Virus record (IMG/VR): IMGVR_UViG_3300005673_000003 | Span: 84,729 to 148,728 of that record | DNA from: a virus | Length of the DNA: 64,000 bases | Strand: one strand, 5' to 3' | Part shown: positions 40,100 to 48,188 of the stretch, piece after piece | Layout: every line of letters starts with the position of its first letter | How positions within the stretch are numbered: position 1 is the stretch's first letter | Program-made: the position numbers and the translations under genes | Notes under the pieces: generated by a model | The model's database searches: none | What the model was told of the DNA's origin: nothing | The model's input: only the letters and a program-made list of their open reading frames with translations

Positions 40100-41763
40100 C
40101 TCATCAACTCCAGTACTTCTGCTCTAGCGCTTGCATCCTTCCGAAACACCCCACGCATACAGCTTGTAACCGTCTCCGAACCAGGCTTAAGCACTCCGCG
40201 AGTGGTCATGCAAGTATGGGCAGCCTTGAGAATTACAGCTACTCCAGACGGGTTAAGGATGCGCTCAATGGCATCTGCTAACTGGTCAGTCAATCGCTCT
40301 TGCAATTGAGGTCGAGCGGCTAAAATATCCAGGCAGCGAGGAATCTTGGATAGCCCAACTACCTTTCCTGATGGGATGTAAGCTACATGAGCAACACCGT
40401 AGAAGGGAAGCAAATGATGCTCACAATTATGGGTTAGTATCCCGCAAACCAGGAAAGTCGGATGCTCATCACACTGAAAGCTATAAACCTTTATCGGCTT
40501 ATCAATTGTTTCGACGGATGCTACCGGAATAAATTCGCTTTCTCCCAGATCTAGGGTATGCTCAATCTGCTCAAACCCATGCTTGTTAAACCATCCCCGT
40601 CTATCCCATCCCATCCCGATATACATTGCGAAGCATCCAGCACCGTTATTTACGGGATAAGGCTTTGAGCCAACTGCATCTCCAAGTTCATCTAAGAAGC
40701 CCTTATTTGTGCTTACGATGATTTGAGCAACCCCCTTCTTAAGCTGCTTTTGTGAACCATCTCCATCGGTGTATCCCTCAAGAAATCCATCCATAATGGA
40801 TTGATCTGTCAGTACGATTTTTGGCAATCGAAATATTTTCGTCTTTGATTTGCTGCCCAGATTAAACGGAAGCCCAAGCTGCTTTAGTAGGCGTTTCGCA
40901 ATTTGGCTTGACGTGAATCTAACTCGGAATTGATCTACATCCTCCTTCCTGAATCCGCTACGCTTCTTAATTTTTTGTATGGGCACCTGAACTCCAAATG
41001 CTCCCACTAATGCTTTTTGAAACTTCTCAGCAAACCATTCATCGCAAACCTCCAGGCATACTCGCCTAGCATCCTGGATCGAACCATCAGAAGCGATCGC
41101 GCCAAGCACGTATCCCAGATCCCTATTCAGATTAAAGGCAAATTGCTCTTTACATAAAGTTCTGGGATTAATCCATTCGATAAGCTCTCCCGGATTAAGT
41201 TTGCCAGCTTCCTGCCAGCCGTACGGGGTTTTAATTGGATGATCTGGAGTAACCCCTATCTCGATGCCGTTGATAAGCTTTAATCGGGTTATCGAAGGAG
41301 CTTCATGAGAGGTGACGGATTTAACCGTAGTCTGCACTGGAATTCCATGCTGAAGAGTCCATAGCCTATCTCCAGCTTTAATACTCCTTGCTTTTCTTGC
41401 CCCGCCAACCGCATTTACCAATTGATAGCCTGGTAAACATAAGCTGAAAAACTGAATATCCCGAATCAGTACTATCTCATCATGGGTGCATTCAAAGGTT
41501 TTTACGAGTGGCAGCAATGGGTCTTCATGCAATCCAGCCGTAATCGTCGCCCAATGCTTTGCAACCCTGGCAGGAGTATCTCGCATCCCATCGCCGTCAA
41601 GCTTAGCTCCCCACAATAAACGCATTGCCGAGGATAGATGTGTTTCCACCTGAGCGAGTGTAGAGGCATCGACTGGTGCAGGTTTCGTTGATCTGGACTG
41701 CAAGCAATCCTCTAAGTCCAGATTCTGAAAGTCGCTCGAAAAGCCATTCTGCGATCGCTTCAC
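40096..41763 (-). CDS. folE: GTP cyclohydrolase I with intein (true start uncertain, overlaps queD)
   Basis: RDTPARV, FSL|[30 protein letters not shown]. Confidence 0.9.
40426..41439 (-). mobile_element. intein with LAGLIDADG homing endonuclease (338 aa)
   Basis: starts CLPG, block [16 protein letters not shown] and [11 protein letters not shown], ends THN before C+1. Confidence 0.92.
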
Positions 41764-42031
41764 TCGTCGGATTCTCCATCTCTAATGTGTCGTTAAGATG
41801 CCAATGATCTAAAAATTGATTGATTAACGGATTGAGCGCTGCTTTGATTTCCGAATAATCCATCACCATACCCTGCTTAGGCCCAGCGGTTTGCAGTGCA
41901 TCCCCTTGGACGTAAATAATCCCTTTCCAGCTATGACCATGCAATCGGGCACACTTGCCATCATGGTTGGGCAGAAAATGAGATGCTTCAAAGGAAAACT
42001 CCTTTCCTAGAATCCATTTAGGTTGCATCAC
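41603..42031 (-). CDS. queD: 6-carboxytetrahydropterin synthase
   Basis: [17 protein letters not shown]...LND, NPTSE, ET. Confidence 0.95.
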
Positions 42032-42639
42032 CGCACTCCTATGTATTTGTGCATTTGAAGAGAAAGGCGGTAGCCAGGATTAGAGCGCAAGAGGTAAAGG
42101 CAGATTGGCAGCGTGCGCTCCCGGTCATCCCACTCCGACTGCAGGAAGACTGGCACCATTGGATCTTCTGGTAGCCACTTCCGATAGAATGCCAGCTCGT
42201 CGCCTGACGAAATGACGATTTTAATCTCGCTGGCATTTACCCAGAATTCGGGCTGCACCGGATACTTAGGATTCAGATGCTGTTTAGGGCTAAGTGTTAT
42301 CCATACCCCTGTAGGCAGCTTCTGCCATGCCGCTCCACTGGTTTCGATATGAACCGTTTTATTAGCGGCGTGCAGCGCTGCAACCAGCTCTGGTAGATTG
42401 CGCTGAATAAATGGCTCCCCACCCGTAATCACCACCCTGGAAGACTTTAATCTCCCAATCAAATCACTAATCTCTTGCTCTGATTGAGGTAAAAATTTGC
42501 CACCATCAGAGTAGCCGGTATCACACCATCGGCAACCAACCGGGCATCCATACAGCCTGATAAAGTCACATGGCGTGCCTGCCCAGTAGCCTTCCCCTTG
42601 GATTGTTTGCTGAAAATCTTCCTGGACTCGGATTCTCAC
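42028..42639 (-). CDS. queE: 7-carboxy-7-deazaguanine synthase (radical SAM)
   Basis: TIQGEG, FIRLYGCPVGCRWCDT, TGGEP, IETSG, LSPK, SLQMHK; GTG start at 42639. Confidence 0.93.
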   Translation of the reverse strand: MRIRVQEDFQQTIQGEGYWAGTPCDFIRLYGCPVGCRWCDTGYSDGGKFLPQSEQEISDLIGRLKSSRVVITGGEPFIQRNLPELVAALHAANKTVHIETSGAAWQKLPTGVWITLSPKQHLNPKYPVQPEFWVNASEIKIVISSGDELAFYRKWLPEDPMVPVFLQSEWDDRERTLPICLYLLRSNPGYRLSLQMHKYIGVR

Positions 42640-42730
42640 GGAAATGGGTGGGTTCGGGAGGGGTGAAGCCCCTGGCTTCAGACATGGGGAGGTAATAGCC
42701 CCTCCCGCGCCTGCGGTAGCAGGCAGAGTC

Positions 42731-44008
42731 TCAAAATCCATACGAATAACCGTCCTTCTTGTGGATTGGTTTGCAATATTTGTGGCTGATACCTGCCACC
42801 CTTCCGGCAGTGGTGTTGATATCGAAACTGCCTGATGCACGACAAAGAACTCGACCCACATAAGAGCCGATTTTCTTACCTGCTGTAACAGTTGCGGTAA
42901 CGATATCGCCTGTTTGAAAGCCTTTGTGAATCTGGACTCTGGATTTATGGCGAGTGGGAAAGCCGTACTTATCCGTTCCACACATCTGCCGACTTCCATG
43001 CCCTTTTGCCGCAATCAGCAACGGCTTTGAAGCGAGAACTTTCAACGTTCCAACATTGCCAACACACGCCGCATCAAACCAATGAGATTTAGGCAGATTT
43101 AACCGAGTGCGATTGAACTTGGTTTGTCCACCTGTCCCCGTGGTTACTGGCAAACCCGTTATCTTCAGAGCGTTGAACAATGCCCATCGGGTAGAGTTGA
43201 CCGCAGCCGCATCTTTAAGCGGTGATTTTGCCTGTTTGAGAATTCGACTCAGCAAATCAGGCTTATCCGCTAGAAAGTCTCGAATATCCTGATTCCCCTT
43301 GCTCTGATTGCAAGGATGACAAGCAAGAGCAAGATTAGAAACTCGGTCAGAACCACCCTTTGATTTCGGTTGGATATGTTCAATCTCAAGCGAAACATTT
43401 TCGACTGAGCAGTACGCGCACTTTCGATTCCACTTCTCCAGCAAATATTCTCGAACTTCGTAGCCTTGCAATTCTCCTTGCTGATACTCAACGCCTGAGA
43501 TTTCAGGATTTGAAATTAACTGCACATCGAACCGCACCAATTCTTGAGCGATGCTTGCGATCGGTGCAAGTCGCATAAACTTGCGAACCCAAGTGAGCGT
43601 TGTTAAAACGCGATGCTGCAATGACGGAGCAAGCCATCCATCAGGACGAGTGCGATTCAAGAATCGAGCCTTGCGATAGCGAGTTTTGCGATTCCGTCTA
43701 GAGCGTCGCAATTGACGACGGGATAGCAACGCATCCTTAATCTGTTGCCCTCGGTGTTGCAATTCGGCTCCAAAGATGAGTTTGTTGCCTTGCTTGATTG
43801 CGATTCCCGTGACTTTAGAGCCGGGATCTAGTTTGAGTTCCAAGTCTTGTACGGGCACATCGGGACAAGCTTCTTTCAGGATGATGGTGAATGGATATTT
43901 TCTGAACACAGCAGCTTTTCCTGCATTAAGGAGGTGACGTGCCGCTCCAGGGTGAACTGGGTCTAGCGGTCGTTTGTTGGTATCCAGCACAAAAACGAAA
44001 TTCGACAT
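42731..44008 (-). CDS. iscB: RNA-guided endonuclease IscB
   Basis: VFVLD...PLDP, LDPGS, RRQLRRSRR, ELVRFD, HNH CAYC...EHIQPKSKGG...NL...C..CN, HWFDAAC. Confidence 0.95.
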   Translation of the reverse strand: MSNFVFVLDTNKRPLDPVHPGAARHLLNAGKAAVFRKYPFTIILKEACPDVPVQDLELKLDPGSKVTGIAIKQGNKLIFGAELQHRGQQIKDALLSRRQLRRSRRNRKTRYRKARFLNRTRPDGWLAPSLQHRVLTTLTWVRKFMRLAPIASIAQELVRFDVQLISNPEISGVEYQQGELQGYEVREYLLEKWNRKCAYCSVENVSLEIEHIQPKSKGGSDRVSNLALACHPCNQSKGNQDIRDFLADKPDLLSRILKQAKSPLKDAAAVNSTRWALFNALKITGLPVTTGTGGQTKFNRTRLNLPKSHWFDAACVGNVGTLKVLASKPLLIAAKGHGSRQMCGTDKYGFPTRHKSRVQIHKGFQTGDIVTATVTAGKKIGSYVGRVLCRASGSFDINTTAGRVAGISHKYCKPIHKKDGYSYGF

Positions 44009-44263
44009 TTGAGAAACTCCATTTCTGGGTAATGTTCGCTTCGCCAATGTTTTAAGAGCTTGTTCGGCTAGTTGCACTTCCTTAACCCACTACAGATGTT
44101 TAGCAACTAGCGACAGAGCCAAGAACTAGCGACGTATCCTTGGGTGTCATGACTCGAAAAACGTAGTCCTCGAAGGACTTAGGCTGGTCATGTTGTGGCT
44201 CGTATCCCGCTCGAAGAGTCGGGCAGTCTACAAGCCCCTGCCTTTAGGCATGGGGTTCATGAC
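44009..44263 (-). ncRNA. omegaRNA scaffold of IscB
   Basis: ~255-nt non-coding region between the element end and iscB, with typical GACCAGCCTAAG, CTACGTT and CATTGGCGAAG segments. Confidence 0.75.
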
Positions 44264-44456
44264 GGAATCTCCTCCCGTTGCTGAGAAATAATTGTTGAGA
44301 AATACAAGACAGCATAACCGATTGATCTCTAAATAATTAACCAATTTATAGCCGCTACATCTCCCAATAGTAAAGCACCCTAGCGTAGGAATCCAGAGTG
44401 CTGCAAGGGTTTATTCTTGATAATTCCGTGTGAACTATATTGTAGCTCTATCTAAG

Positions 44457-45305
44457 TCAAATAGCTTTTAGATCGAACAAGGATAATTGCGGGATGCGAT
44501 CGCGAGCCTCAGGGGATACCCAAAGATATTCGCATTCCTTGCCAATCCGCTTACTAATGACTATCCAGCCATCCGGCTTATGCTTTTCGTAAAGCTCGGA
44601 AGTGTAGCCGCTGACGATAGCAGATCTCCCTTGAAGCATCTCCAGTGCCAATACATGCTCCTTGTCCGAAAATTCGCAAGCATACTGCCTGCGAGATGCC
44701 GTTTTCTGCGGATTTTTAGCCCGATTATCTTTCGATTTTCGAGCTTCCTGGACGTAGGGAGGATCCAGGTAATAGAGGATGCTGGGGTCTTTTGGCATCG
44801 CTTTTAGCACATCAAAGCATGATTCCTGGCGAATGCTGACACACCGAAGGCGATCGCTGCAGGCCCATAAATGGAATGGATTCGCTTCCTCCCTGGTAGC
44901 ACTCCCCCTGCCACTACTCCACCGAGTTCCTCCACCACTCCAGGATAGATGGCTATAGCAATAGAATTGAGCAGCCAGCTCGATACCATCAAGACCTTCT
45001 TCCTGATGGACTGCTAGCGGATCTCGCAGAAGGAATACATCATCCTCTTCATCTAGAAACCTGTAAATCGCTTCTATCAGCTCTGCTGGGTTGCCTTTAA
45101 GCACTTGCATGAAATTGCAAGCTGGCTGATAAATATCGCAGTAAATCTCTGTAGGGGCAGGATTCTTCGCGAATAGCATTGCACCAGAGCCGCCGCATAA
45201 ATCAACATACTGTTGATGCGGCGGAAATGAGCCTAAAATCCATTCGGCCCACTTCCACTTTGCTCCAAAGTACGGGATTGCTGGCTTGAGAATCCTGCCT
45301 ACCAT
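44457..45305 (-). CDS. Dam-like (D12 class) N6-adenine DNA methyltransferase
   Basis: PYFGAK, DLCGGSG, YLDPPY, VSGY. Confidence 0.85.
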   Translation of the reverse strand: MVGRILKPAIPYFGAKWKWAEWILGSFPPHQQYVDLCGGSGAMLFAKNPAPTEIYCDIYQPACNFMQVLKGNPAELIEAIYRFLDEEDDVFLLRDPLAVHQEEGLDGIELAAQFYCYSHLSWSGGGTRWSSGRGSATREEANPFHLWACSDRLRCVSIRQESCFDVLKAMPKDPSILYYLDPPYVQEARKSKDNRAKNPQKTASRRQYACEFSDKEHVLALEMLQGRSAIVSGYTSELYEKHKPDGWIVISKRIGKECEYLWVSPEARDRIPQLSLFDLKAI

Positions 45306-45523
45306 TGATAGCCCTTGCGAACTGCAATGTACTTCCAGCCGTCTTCTGTTTTCTGCCAAACCCGCATCCAGCGATCGCAAGCTGGGAGAGGGCAATCTTT
45401 ATAAAAAGAAAGGCGAACTTGCTGGCCCACTACTGCAAATTGATAGCTCTCGATCAACTCTTTTAAGTCCGCTCCAATCTGTTTAGGATCGGGAGTCGGA
45501 GCAAAGTTGCGACAATCGTACAT
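45299..45523 (-). CDS. small hypothetical protein
   Basis: GGAGG RBS and 12-mer motif upstream. Confidence 0.55.
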   Translation of the reverse strand: MYDCRNFAPTPDPKQIGADLKELIESYQFAVVGQQVRLSFYKDCPLPACDRWMRVWQKTEDGWKYIAVRKGYQW

Positions 45524-45553
45524 AAGTCCTCCGATTAATTGATTGATTTTAGA

Positions 45554-46711
45554 TTAGCTTGCCAGCCCTAACGTTTTTTGCTCGGCATTCAATACACTCT
45601 TTAGCTCTTTGACGGACAGATTGAAATACGACTTCTTAAGTTCGCTTCCCAGATACTTTCTACCCATCTTTAATGCTGCGTAACCAGTGCTAGCCCTTCC
45701 ATTGAACGGATCACAAATCACGTCGCCTTCATTACTCCAAAGTTCGATCGAGCGTGCTATCACATCGATTTGTAGAGGGCAAAGATGCGGCTCCTCTTCA
45801 TTCTCCTTAGCGCCATTCACGTTCAGGACGTTGGTTTGCTTCATATCAAACCAGACCGGAGAAGCGTATTTCTGCCAAACCTTAATAGAGAAATCGCGAG
45901 GATCTAAAACCTCGCCATACCAATAGGATATCCCATCGCGATCGCTCCACTTCAGTCTGCTATCAAAAGGTGGCTGTTCGCCAATGTAGCCAGTGGAATC
46001 AAACCGGTATAGTCCATCATCCTTACGGTTGACTGGCTTCACGCTATCCATTGTAGTCATCTCTTCAGACCATTTGCGGAACACCAGCAAATAATCGGCC
46101 ATTCCTTGACGGCTAACACTAGAATCTTTGCAGAGTTGAGAGTGTAGTAACCCATGATTGTTGGTGCGCTCCATCTCCGTTTTTGGACACTTCCAAATCG
46201 TTACCCGCGAATGGAATACCCATGACTGGGATTGCTGCCAGATAAGCTCCTTTTCGAGTGCATCAATCTTTTGATCAAATAATCGAAGATCGCAATCCAG
46301 GGAAGCTGCGATCGCTCTTGCCTCCCTCATTGCGTCCAATCGGATTACTAATTCCTCTACCGCATCCCCAGTAAATCTGCGAATGATGTTGCCAGGGAAA
46401 TCCTTTAGTCCTGCAACGCCATCTCGCCCCTTAAACAAGGGTAAGTCTTTGCAATGGATCACAGCAAGCCTGCCTGGAGTAGTGCAACGGTAAAGTTCAG
46501 GAATCAGGTAGTCAAAGCTTCGGTAAAACTGCTCGTCATCCTCCACGTTGCCCATATCCCGTGCGCTAGGAGAGTAAGTATAAAGATTGCAGAACGGAGG
46601 ACTGGTGATAGTTAGGTCAATAAAATTTGAAGGTAGAGCGCTGAGTACTTCGACCGAATCAGCGTTATACAATTGCCAGTTATCGCCGGATGATTGATCT
46701 AAAACTTTCAT
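45554..46711 (-). CDS. N4-C/N6-A DNA methyltransferase (beta class)
   Basis: TSPPF, HLCPLQ, DPFNG; ATGA-coupled to the helicase. Confidence 0.88.
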   Translation of the reverse strand: MKVLDQSSGDNWQLYNADSVEVLSALPSNFIDLTITSPPFCNLYTYSPSARDMGNVEDDEQFYRSFDYLIPELYRCTTPGRLAVIHCKDLPLFKGRDGVAGLKDFPGNIIRRFTGDAVEELVIRLDAMREARAIAASLDCDLRLFDQKIDALEKELIWQQSQSWVFHSRVTIWKCPKTEMERTNNHGLLHSQLCKDSSVSRQGMADYLLVFRKWSEEMTTMDSVKPVNRKDDGLYRFDSTGYIGEQPPFDSRLKWSDRDGISYWYGEVLDPRDFSIKVWQKYASPVWFDMKQTNVLNVNGAKENEEEPHLCPLQIDVIARSIELWSNEGDVICDPFNGRASTGYAALKMGRKYLGSELKKSYFNLSVKELKSVLNAEQKTLGLAS

Positions 46712-48171
46712 GCGGTTTTGCTTTGTGCCCATGATGGAATCTCCATGATTACTTGAGGTTCGTAGTCGTCCAATTTCAAGCCATTGCAATGAATCAGCTT
46801 CTGTTCTGCAACAGCCTGCCTGAATCCAATTTGCTGAAGTTTATACTCGTGCTCTTTCTCTACCAATCGAGACTGGACATTGCCTGCCGTCTCAGCGAAT
46901 ACCCGATGAACATCAACAGCTTCAGTCTGCCCATTGCGATAATTGCGGTGCAGCGCTTGATGGTACTGCTCAAAACTGTAGCTGCTCCCCATCACGAAAA
47001 TCACCTTATGGCAATGCTGCCAGTTCATCCCCAGCCCTGCAATTTCAGGCTTGGTGGAAAACCGCTTGTAAATACCCTGGGAGTACCCAGTTAGCTTCTT
47101 ATGCTTACTGGCGCGAGTTTCAGAACCCCTAAGAATCGTTAGACCAGGAATCACTTTCTCCAGCTCATCTACTTCGTAATCAGTGAATGTCCAAATCTGC
47201 CAAGTTTCATCAGGCTCATTTTCGATAATTTCAGCTACCTTTCGAGCTAGTAGAGCGGCATTTTTCTTTTGCTCTTTGTGGACGGTGGTAGCCGAGTTTG
47301 ATGGAGTCCTGATTAAGGTTAGCTGCCCATCGCGATCGCATTCTTCACCTAACCCCATAGTGTGATCTACAGGGATAATATGGTTTACAACGTTGAGAGG
47401 CGGCAAATCCCAGCCTTCATCCGAGAATCCGAGGTCTGACGGCATATTTAAGCAAACTGCCCATGACGAAATCCACCTCCAGAAATCACGCCGGGAATGC
47501 GGCTTCAGTTTGTAATCTCCAGCTTTCATGGAGTTACGGATAAAGAATCGGGTGAGTAGCTGATCCCAGCCCTGAATTTCCAAAAATTCCGCCTGACCCT
47601 GCCATTCCAAAGGGTTGTTTGGTGCAGGCAGCGCGGAATAGCAAGATTTAAACTCAAATCCCTTAAACCAATCGCACAAAAACTGCTTAGTCTTGCCAGT
47701 CCAGTTCTTTAGGATAGAGCTTTCATCTAATGCGATCGCTTTGAACTGACTTAACACTGGCTCAAGCTTATCCAGTCGATCGTAGTTGGTGATGATAATG
47801 CTTGATTTAGACCGATTGGCGGTAGCGGCGGATTCAGCGTAATCCACCTGAATTCTGAACTTTTCGCCCTCGCTAACGGTCTGCTCTGCAACAGCCAAAG
47901 GAGCCAGTATTAAGGTTCTGGCATCTGTATAGCTGGCAGTATGCTTTGCCCATTCAAGCTGCATCCTGGTCTTACCTCGCCCATAATTGGCGTAACATCC
48001 AGACCGACCCAACCTAAGCTGCCATTGCACGATATGCGGCTGAAATTGATACTTCTCGCCGTATGATTCTGGATTCAACGCATCTATTGGCAGATCAAAT
48101 CCAGACTCCTTAGCCAGCAAGAACTTCGAGTTAATAAAATCCTGATAGCCTTCCATTGCATTACCTTCCAT
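46708..48171 (-). CDS. SNF2-like helicase
   Basis: GRGKT, LAPLAV, ITNYD, LDESSILK, TKPEIAGLGMNWQ, QALHR..RNGQ. Confidence 0.85.
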   Translation of the reverse strand: MEGNAMEGYQDFINSKFLLAKESGFDLPIDALNPESYGEKYQFQPHIVQWQLRLGRSGCYANYGRGKTRMQLEWAKHTASYTDARTLILAPLAVAEQTVSEGEKFRIQVDYAESAATANRSKSSIIITNYDRLDKLEPVLSQFKAIALDESSILKNWTGKTKQFLCDWFKGFEFKSCYSALPAPNNPLEWQGQAEFLEIQGWDQLLTRFFIRNSMKAGDYKLKPHSRRDFWRWISSWAVCLNMPSDLGFSDEGWDLPPLNVVNHIIPVDHTMGLGEECDRDGQLTLIRTPSNSATTVHKEQKKNAALLARKVAEIIENEPDETWQIWTFTDYEVDELEKVIPGLTILRGSETRASKHKKLTGYSQGIYKRFSTKPEIAGLGMNWQHCHKVIFVMGSSYSFEQYHQALHRNYRNGQTEAVDVHRVFAETAGNVQSRLVEKEHEYKLQQIGFRQAVAEQKLIHCNGLKLDDYEPQVIMEIPSWAQSKTA

Positions 48172-48188
48172 TGCATTAATTGATTGAT

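Follow-up and report, generated by a model that had tools for sequence, protein, structure and literature searches.

The 64,000-nt stretch analysed here (the window) spans bases 84729-148728 of the 148,728-bp IMG/VR virus record IMGVR_UViG_3300005673_000003, which possesses direct terminal repeats and is rated complete. On its minus strand, positions 42640-44263 are occupied by a 1,624-bp non-autonomous IS200/IS605-type (ISC) transposon, typical for its family, that carries an omegaRNA and an intact gene for IscB, an RNA-guided nuclease (OMEGA) and ancestor of Cas9. Sequence comparison confirms that the element sits exactly between the Shine-Dalgarno sequence (SD) and the start codon of queE, at N|GTGA. 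The host replicon is a cyanophage, and queE belongs to the 7-deazaguanine pathway, which serves DNA modification. Insertion of such a transposon at N|GTGA on the start of the cyanophage queE gene is, in our assessment, very likely the correct explanation of this region. The element is a new copy of the typical, intact kind of IscB transposon; as a base-exact example in a virus genome, verified by its empty site, it allows a guide and a target-adjacent motif (TAM) to be defined without experiment.

The insertion point and the parts of the element

Read on the minus strand, the 5′ junction runs ...CAGCAACGGGAGGAGATTCC|GTCATGAACCCC... and the 3′ junction ...CCCACCCATTTCC|GTGAGAATCCGA..., and deletion of 42640-44263 yields GGGAGGAGATTCC-GTG-AGA-ATC. 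From the sequence alone, an initial annotation had placed the element exactly between the queE ribosome-binding site and start codon, its removal giving a well-spaced site and a GTG start, and had named empty-site relatives as one means of checking this. Two such relatives were located, via the members (203 aa) of the 90 % protein cluster of the window QueE: L004 and L006, from two independent Logan assemblies, have a D12-class adenine methylase gene and queE separated by a 190-nt leader that lacks the element, and read GGGAGGAGATCCC-GTG-GGA-ATC at the matching place between methylase and queE. Over a longer junction they display ...TCTCAGTAATGGGAGGAGATCCC GTG GGA ATC CGA GTT..., compared with ...TCTCAGCAACGGGAGGAGATTCC|[element]|GTG AGA ATC CGA GTC... 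in the window, to which L004 is 80–83 % identical. BLAST alignments break at window positions 44262 and 42641, overlap by 4 nt and reveal no target duplication. As the empty site equals the window minus 42640-44263, queE natively starts at GTG 42639, and its own SD, the GGGAGGAG box, now lies upstream of the element (44276-44269), within the 5′ flank at 44264-44283 (minus strand; CAGCAACGGGAGGAGATTCC). In the empty alleles of L004 and L006 this flank is conserved as CAGTAATGGGAGGAGATCCC, immediately ahead of GTG. An exact search of IMG/VR for the reconstructed empty junction returned no match. A second occupied contig, L005 of JGI metagenome 3300014773, matches the window at 100 % identity for 1,317 nt, a span that takes in the final 52 nt of the element and their junction with queE.

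All parts of the element lie on the minus strand. The omegaRNA scaffold, a HEARO RNA (Rfam RF02033), occupies 44029-44263, with a match of 155.1 bits (gathering score 83; E 5.8e-34) that covers model positions 1-211 of 211. This match begins exactly at 44263, the base named in the initial annotation, and ends 21 nt ahead of the iscB ATG. Its first bases, GTCA, are also the 5′ terminus of the element on the iscB strand (the right end in the TnpA convention). The iscB gene (42731-44008, 425 aa) has its own GGAG box 8 nt ahead of the ATG, and its product matches the Pfam families RRXRR (PF14239, 1.4e-75) and HNH (PF01844/PF14279, about 1e-11), passes the NCBIfam equivalog NF040563 guided_IscB with 475.6 bits (cut-off 175), and aligns to IscB chains in the PDB with E-values down to 8e-39. 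The features that define IscB are present: a split RuvC with an HNH insert, an arginine-rich bridge helix (RRXRR) and a same-strand upstream omegaRNA. Alignment to TbaIscB (9K30) places the catalytic residues within FVFVLD (RuvC-I Asp), EIEHIQP (HNH His), SNLALAC (Asn) and SHWFDA (RuvC-III His..Asp), and the protein is accordingly predicted to be intact, with its catalytic residues in place.

The remaining 91 nt (42640-42730) form the other end of the element (the left end in the TnpA convention), which is C-rich and has no SD-like box. As single-stranded DNA, 42630-42740 folds into nested hairpins at −24.2 kcal/mol (z −3.2), as expected for an IS200/IS605 end; as RNA, the same end forms a leader ahead of GTG 42639 that folds at −54.4 kcal/mol. 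This end is kept in the related loci L091, L093 and L095, and hairpin 1 displays compensatory changes in L007 and L093. No match to PF01797, the Y1 (HUH) transposase, occurs in the complete 148.7-kb phage record, and the element is therefore non-autonomous, in line with the earlier view that TnpA would have to act in trans; a TnpA of the host cell is assumed to do so.

Amongst the closest described elements is ISC1-1_MA of Microcystis aeruginosa, which is likewise non-autonomous, begins with a 5′-GTCA terminus, harbours subterminal palindromes and relies on a Y1 transposase in trans (PMC4810608). Elements of this type also insert immediately ahead of a 4-bp target (N|ATGA, GT|RA) and do not duplicate it, as seen here. 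The window element differs from those ISC elements in residing on a phage replicon and in having a GTGA target that coincides with a start codon; the main text of that study makes no mention of start codons or translation (PMC4810608). OgeuIscB-omegaRNA (PDB 7XHT, 7UTN, 8CSZ) belongs to the same protein family (E about 2e-30) and RNA family, although it is a distant relative of 496 aa, compared with 425 aa in the window, with about half of the protein matched. The window GTGAGA fits the NWRRNA TAM of OgeuIscB, but transfer of a TAM is not assumed across such distant relatives.

Within the omegaRNA 5′ end lies a 10-codon open reading frame (ORF), MNPMPKGRGL* (44228-44260, minus strand), 8 nt behind the orphaned queE SD GGGAGGAG. 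Its ATG is part of the GTCATGAACCCC terminus conserved in related copies, and the ORF is probably incidental. Ribosomes loading at the displaced SD (window 44228-44276) could nonetheless disturb folding of the omegaRNA.

Predicted target motif, guide and sparing of the occupied site

The motif abutting the element, GTGA at 42636-42639 on the minus strand (TCAC on the plus strand), consists of the queE start codon plus one base, and is the putative TAM and TnpA target. For comparison, 80 cyanobacterial loci with IscB relatives 58–88 % identical to that of the window were examined, and in almost all of them RTGA directly follows the element end. In placing the omegaRNA 5′ end at these loci, a strict regular expression missed most, whilst nhmmer with the window scaffold placed most. 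RTGA is found in 58 of 58 copies that could be bounded automatically, a count to be read with the fact that the boundary itself was set by searching for RTGA. Independently of that search, copies with the same end type at different loci match up to and including GTGA, beyond which they diverge. The targets published for ISC elements are GT|GG, GT|RA and N|ATGA (PMC4810608). In addition, work on GstIscB derives the IscB scaffold from the transposon end and the guide from the outside flank, and takes the TAM to be the TnpA target, TTCAT in that case corresponding to ATGAA on the iscB strand (10.1101/2023.03.14.532601). The proposals that GTGA is the TAM and that the guide derives from the 5′ flank are both upheld: the former by the RTGA ends of relatives and the published ISC target and GstIscB TAM (PMC4810608; 10.1101/2023.03.14.532601), and the latter by the HEARO boundary at 44263 together with the published rule (10.1101/2023.03.14.532601). 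The comparison thus lends good support to GTGA as the predicted TAM and to CAGCAACGGGAGGAGATTCC, in full or limited to its last 16 nt, as the predicted guide.

At the occupied site the guide is followed by GTCA, whereas at the empty site it is followed by GTGA, a one-base difference at TAM position 3. No second match to the guide plus RTGA is present within the phage. Since the occupied site reads GTCA, it would be spared by its own IscB.

The arrangement closely parallels that of GstIscB from ISGst of Geobacillus stearothermophilus: the scaffold comes from the end and the guide from the flank, TAM and TnpA target coincide, and the element points the same way as the gene upstream of it (10.1101/2023.03.14.532601). 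According to the same source, iscB elements tend to be co-oriented with the gene upstream, about 98 % of iscB loci are non-autonomous, and the proposed role of GstIscB is the cutting of the vacated donor site (10.1101/2023.03.14.532601). Activity of GstIscB has been demonstrated by experiment, whereas the window IscB is known from sequence and resides on a replicon without TnpA; the study of GstIscB did not address the downstream gene (10.1101/2023.03.14.532601). By analogy, a Y1 transposase supplied by the host cell would insert the element at N|GTGA (TCAC| on the active strand), after which transcription from the methylase/queE leader would yield a single RNA comprising the 20-nt flank and the scaffold. 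The resulting guide would match the empty site followed by GTGA, leaving the occupied GTCA site untouched, and, judging from published work on relatives, IscB-omegaRNA would cut the vacated site after excision, with recombination restoring the element.

Several points weigh against this account. The boundary of the element is ambiguous and can slide by 6 nt, because TTCC before and GT after are common to both junctions; N|GTGA was chosen because the terminus then becomes GTCA, as in published cyanobacterial ISC elements. The empty alleles belong to a phage just 80–83 % identical, such that both the timing of the event and its direction, a gain in the window phage or a loss in the other, can only be inferred from the nature of the element. 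About half of the long ORFs of the phage have no SD-like box, and its absence at GTG 42639 therefore says little about whether queE is poorly translated. Finally, a scan of 42500-44600 found no sigma-70-like promoter, such that the source of the guide-bearing transcript is an assumption.

Start codons at the ends of related elements

To evaluate what lies at the boundary of other copies, an SD-like box was defined as GGAG, GAGG or AGGA 4-16 nt inside the element end, and was sought in the 58 automatically bounded copies. It is present in 35, compared with 7.5 % of 1,014 control RTGA sites from the same loci. An ORF of 80 codons or more starts at the RTG in 22 of the 58 copies, against 21 % of controls, which include in-frame sites within genes. 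The two features are associated, with long ORFs following 19 of the 35 copies that have the box and three of the 23 that do not (Fisher p 0.002); those three SD-less copies carry purine-rich near-SDs. Downstream ORFs appear to be genuine genes, as Pfam domains are found in all ten that were tested (including SurE, glutaredoxin, response regulators, LptF/G, TetR and DUF29), and in seven of the ten the domain matches from profile position 1-2, within the first 21 residues. Moreover, GGGAGGCGGACAG|ATGA recurs before four different Moorena genes. Judged by this recurrence of one end type ahead of different genes, the SD-like box belongs to the element. As it is absent from the end type of the window, recognition by TnpA does not seem to require it.

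Copies whose IscB is ~88–91 % identical to that of the window possess three unrelated 3′ end types of 91, 71 and 85 nt: type A (L091, L093 and L095, and the window itself), type B (L010, L087, L092 and L100) and type C (L110-L113), with AGGAGG found only in C. The occurrence of close IscB proteins on three end types suggests that end modules are exchanged amongst close iscB genes. The type A end, ...GGGGCTTCACCCCTCCCGAACCCACCCATTTCC|GTGA, is seen in the window, L091, L093/L094, L095 and L232, and also in L007, where it is cut by the contig end. An exact 23-mer of this end has no match in the metagenome and viral collections; a degenerate version returned 117 matches, which proved to be unrelated palindromes resembling repetitive extragenic palindromic (REP) sequences. 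Two close relatives occur in viral or phage-like contexts, L087 (IMGVR_UViG_3300005669_000002) and L095 (beside Phage_Mu_F, tail and CIS_tube genes), which suggests that the clade enters phage DNA repeatedly.

The phage itself harbours two further OMEGA elements outside the window, on the minus strand at G000:C1:19298-20341 (L098) and G000:C1:66419-67582 (L097). Both encode IsrB-like proteins, HNH-less relatives of IscB, of 347 and 387 aa, respectively. One ends GGAGACTCA|ATGA, and the other GGAGAATTTTTG|ATGA, where the ATG is precisely the start codon of a phage ORF (MKVSRRGRTV...). These |ATGA ends resemble the TAMs of DtIsrB and other IsrB proteins, NTGA or NTG, which are read by the C-terminal TI domain, with the fourth base A needed in DtIsrB; IsrB, having no HNH, only nicks (PMC9581776). 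A 32-nt stretch after the iscB stop (42700-42731; the hairpin GCCTGC-N4-GCAGGC plus flanks) recurs with 94 % identity after the stop of the first IsrB gene, at G000:C1:19268-19299 (L002 about 1501-1532). As the iscB and IsrB elements share part of an end, one transposase may serve both.

A broader reading can be offered tentatively, although as a whole we consider it on the unlikely side. IscB and IsrB elements with RTGA TAMs may use start codons as landing pads, where the promoter and leader of the host gene would give the guide transcript, the far end of the element would supply a replacement SD, and the host gene would become the last cistron of an omegaRNA-iscB-gene transcript and hence not be silenced. 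In SD-less type A ends, a 34-codon in-frame leader coupled to the iscB stop would do the same by fusion. In this phage there may be a further twist. An arginine of DtIsrB contacts N7 of the TAM guanine (PMC9581776), and the pathway product of the gene on which the element is parked, queE, lacks guanine N7, the very atom so contacted. If the TAM guanine were modified, a DtIsrB-type Arg-N7 contact would be lost; provided that IscB makes the same contact, the element could be lodged in a pathway that governs the ability of its own nuclease to read phage DNA. Parking on a start codon with an SD-like box could explain why RTGA targets are common amongst OMEGA elements, as well as their tendency to be co-oriented with upstream genes and their persistence in compact genomes without gene silencing. 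The window copy, an SD-less end on a start codon, is an informative exception, and provides a natural test of the importance of a donated SD. Such parking is not mentioned in the ISC, IscB and IsrB literature examined, which did not extend to Weinberg 2009 and Altae-Tran 2021.

Translation of queE, alternative readings and the phage setting

The queE gene (42028-42639, minus strand) encodes an intact 7-carboxy-7-deazaguanine synthase of 203 aa with a Radical_SAM domain (PF04055). It matches five NCBIfam QueE models, all below their curated cut-offs, and is 60–65 % identical to cyanobacterial proteins named QueE over 99–100 % of its length; in IMG/VR only one relative was found, at 47 % identity. 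Invariant QueE residues include C66, C70 and C73, numbered in a 237-aa form (P0001) that was chosen by the gene callers. In contrast to that form, 13 homologues begin level with GTG 42639. Against the empty allele, dN/dS (the ratio of non-synonymous to synonymous substitution rates) is 0.067, a value that spans the whole divergence and not the post-insertion branch alone.

Since the end that lies on queE is SD-less, the route by which QueE is translated is left between alternatives. Ribosomes may start at GTG 42639 without an SD, behind the strongly folded leader, or may re-initiate at the in-frame ATG at 42739-42741 (minus strand), 8 nt ahead of the iscB stop codon, giving QueE plus 34 residues. 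A tolerated reduction in QueE output and efficient translation by either route are about equally likely. Given how many phage ORFs are SD-less, initiation without an SD at GTG 42639 is a realistic option.

The longer form reflects the proposal of the initial annotation that ATG 42741 is a rescue start. This ATG does share the queE frame, and none of the 34 codons leading into queE is a stop. As a feature of the queE insertion, however, the proposal does not hold. The ATG derives from TAT-GGA (Tyr-Gly) codons of the conserved IscB C-terminus (YSYGF in the window), and is present in all type A copies, including four complete relatives (L091, L093, L095 and L232). The 91-nt end length puts it in frame with GTG in the window, L091, L093 and L232, whilst in L095 a 92-nt end leaves it out of frame by one base. 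After the GTG, only 5 codons follow in L091 and 29 in L093; the open frame without a long ORF behind it marks the leader as a lineage trait and not a response to insertion at queE. The 91-nt end contains one stop triplet across all three frames, and, with two of three frames open, an open leader is weak evidence. Nor is the RTG frame preferentially open across the family (it is open in 22 of 58 copies, and the other two frames in 15 and 42). A search for proteins with the 34-aa leader yielded only one further type A copy (P0245/L232), too few for a test of coding constraint. The start is thus best viewed, on sequence grounds, as a built-in by-product of the element, by which a rescue route is possible.

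This route could still be functional, with ribosomes that finish iscB re-initiating 8 nt upstream of its stop and producing an N-extended, active QueE, so that the insertion is silent. We regard this as possible, yet less than probable. The ATG and the iscB stop region overlap (ATGGATTTTGA), and passage of a translating ribosome would facilitate unfolding of the structure ahead of a GTG that has no SD-like box. Start-codon-docked copies of other end types all carry such a box, so that the window copy needs another route. No intrinsic terminator pattern was found between iscB and queE, which is intact. Beyond the lineage evidence above, the sole SD-like box ahead of ATG 42741, an AGGA at 11 nt, speaks against efficient use. 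Translational coupling from iscB to queE is nevertheless plausible from this layout.

Of similarly doubtful standing is the notion that the insertion cripples queE translation and is tolerated, either because host QueE makes preQ0 precursors or because partial modification suffices, the element being a mildly harmful passenger. The native SD has been displaced by 1.6 kb, and a strong fold without an SD-like box lies ahead of GTG. SD-less ends on start codons are rare (the three of 23 above), which suggests that they are usually counter-selected. Cyanobacteria encode close homologues of QueE, and the phage carries other parasites, namely an intein in folE of the same cluster and the two IsrB elements elsewhere. 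Conversely, queE is intact, the occupied allele is found on two contigs (the window record and L005), and dN/dS is low, although not specific to the post-insertion branch. With so many phage genes devoid of an SD-like box, SD-independent initiation may also be normal here.

Less likely still is that IscB serves mainly as a homing or exclusion nuclease between phages, cutting the empty queE leader of relatives during co-infection and copying the element in, or excluding markers, without TnpA. IscB and its omegaRNA are intact in a phage with no transposase, three OMEGA elements are present, both occupied and empty alleles exist amongst related phages, and 'non-restorative homing' into co-infecting phages or plasmids has been discussed as a possibility (PMC13565253). 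Yet the only empty alleles found differ at 3 of 20 guide positions (two of these within the final 16, including one at 3 nt from the TAM) and carry GTGG in place of GTGA. By analogy only, DtIsrB does not cut an NTGG TAM (PMC9581776). Furthermore, the phages are 80–83 % identical, with no sign of co-conversion tracts. Homing into related phages, as earlier suggested, thus fits poorly, and invasion of L004/L006-type relatives by the window IscB is doubtful; nothing supports the companion suggestion of an excision-controlled switch for queE expression. Lastly, whilst insertion sequences often break or mis-join metagenome assemblies and many of the related IscB contigs are short, a host insertion sequence mis-joined into the phage contig is highly improbable, as the exact junctions fit the N|RTGA rule of the family, L005 spans the element-queE junction at 100 % identity, an identical IscB protein occurs on two contigs and the phage has two more OMEGA elements with the same kind of junction.

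On the minus strand, the genes run from the D12-class adenine methylase (45395-44457; gene list and Pfam) through a 193-nt leader to the element, queE, queD (42031-41603) and folE (GTP cyclohydrolase I, 41763-40096; Pfam), the last split by a LAGLIDADG intein. A megablast search of GenBank phages with window 41000-46000 gave no match. The intein corresponds to a 1,024-nt stretch (window 40426-41449) missing from the related contigs L004 and L006, such that the 7-deazaguanine gene cluster houses a second selfish element for which relatives likewise offer an empty allele. A further indel between related phages lies upstream of the methylase, where 2.6 kb (window 45556-48174) are missing from L004; this segment encodes a methyltransferase-like ORF of 411 aa and a helicase-like ORF of 487 aa.

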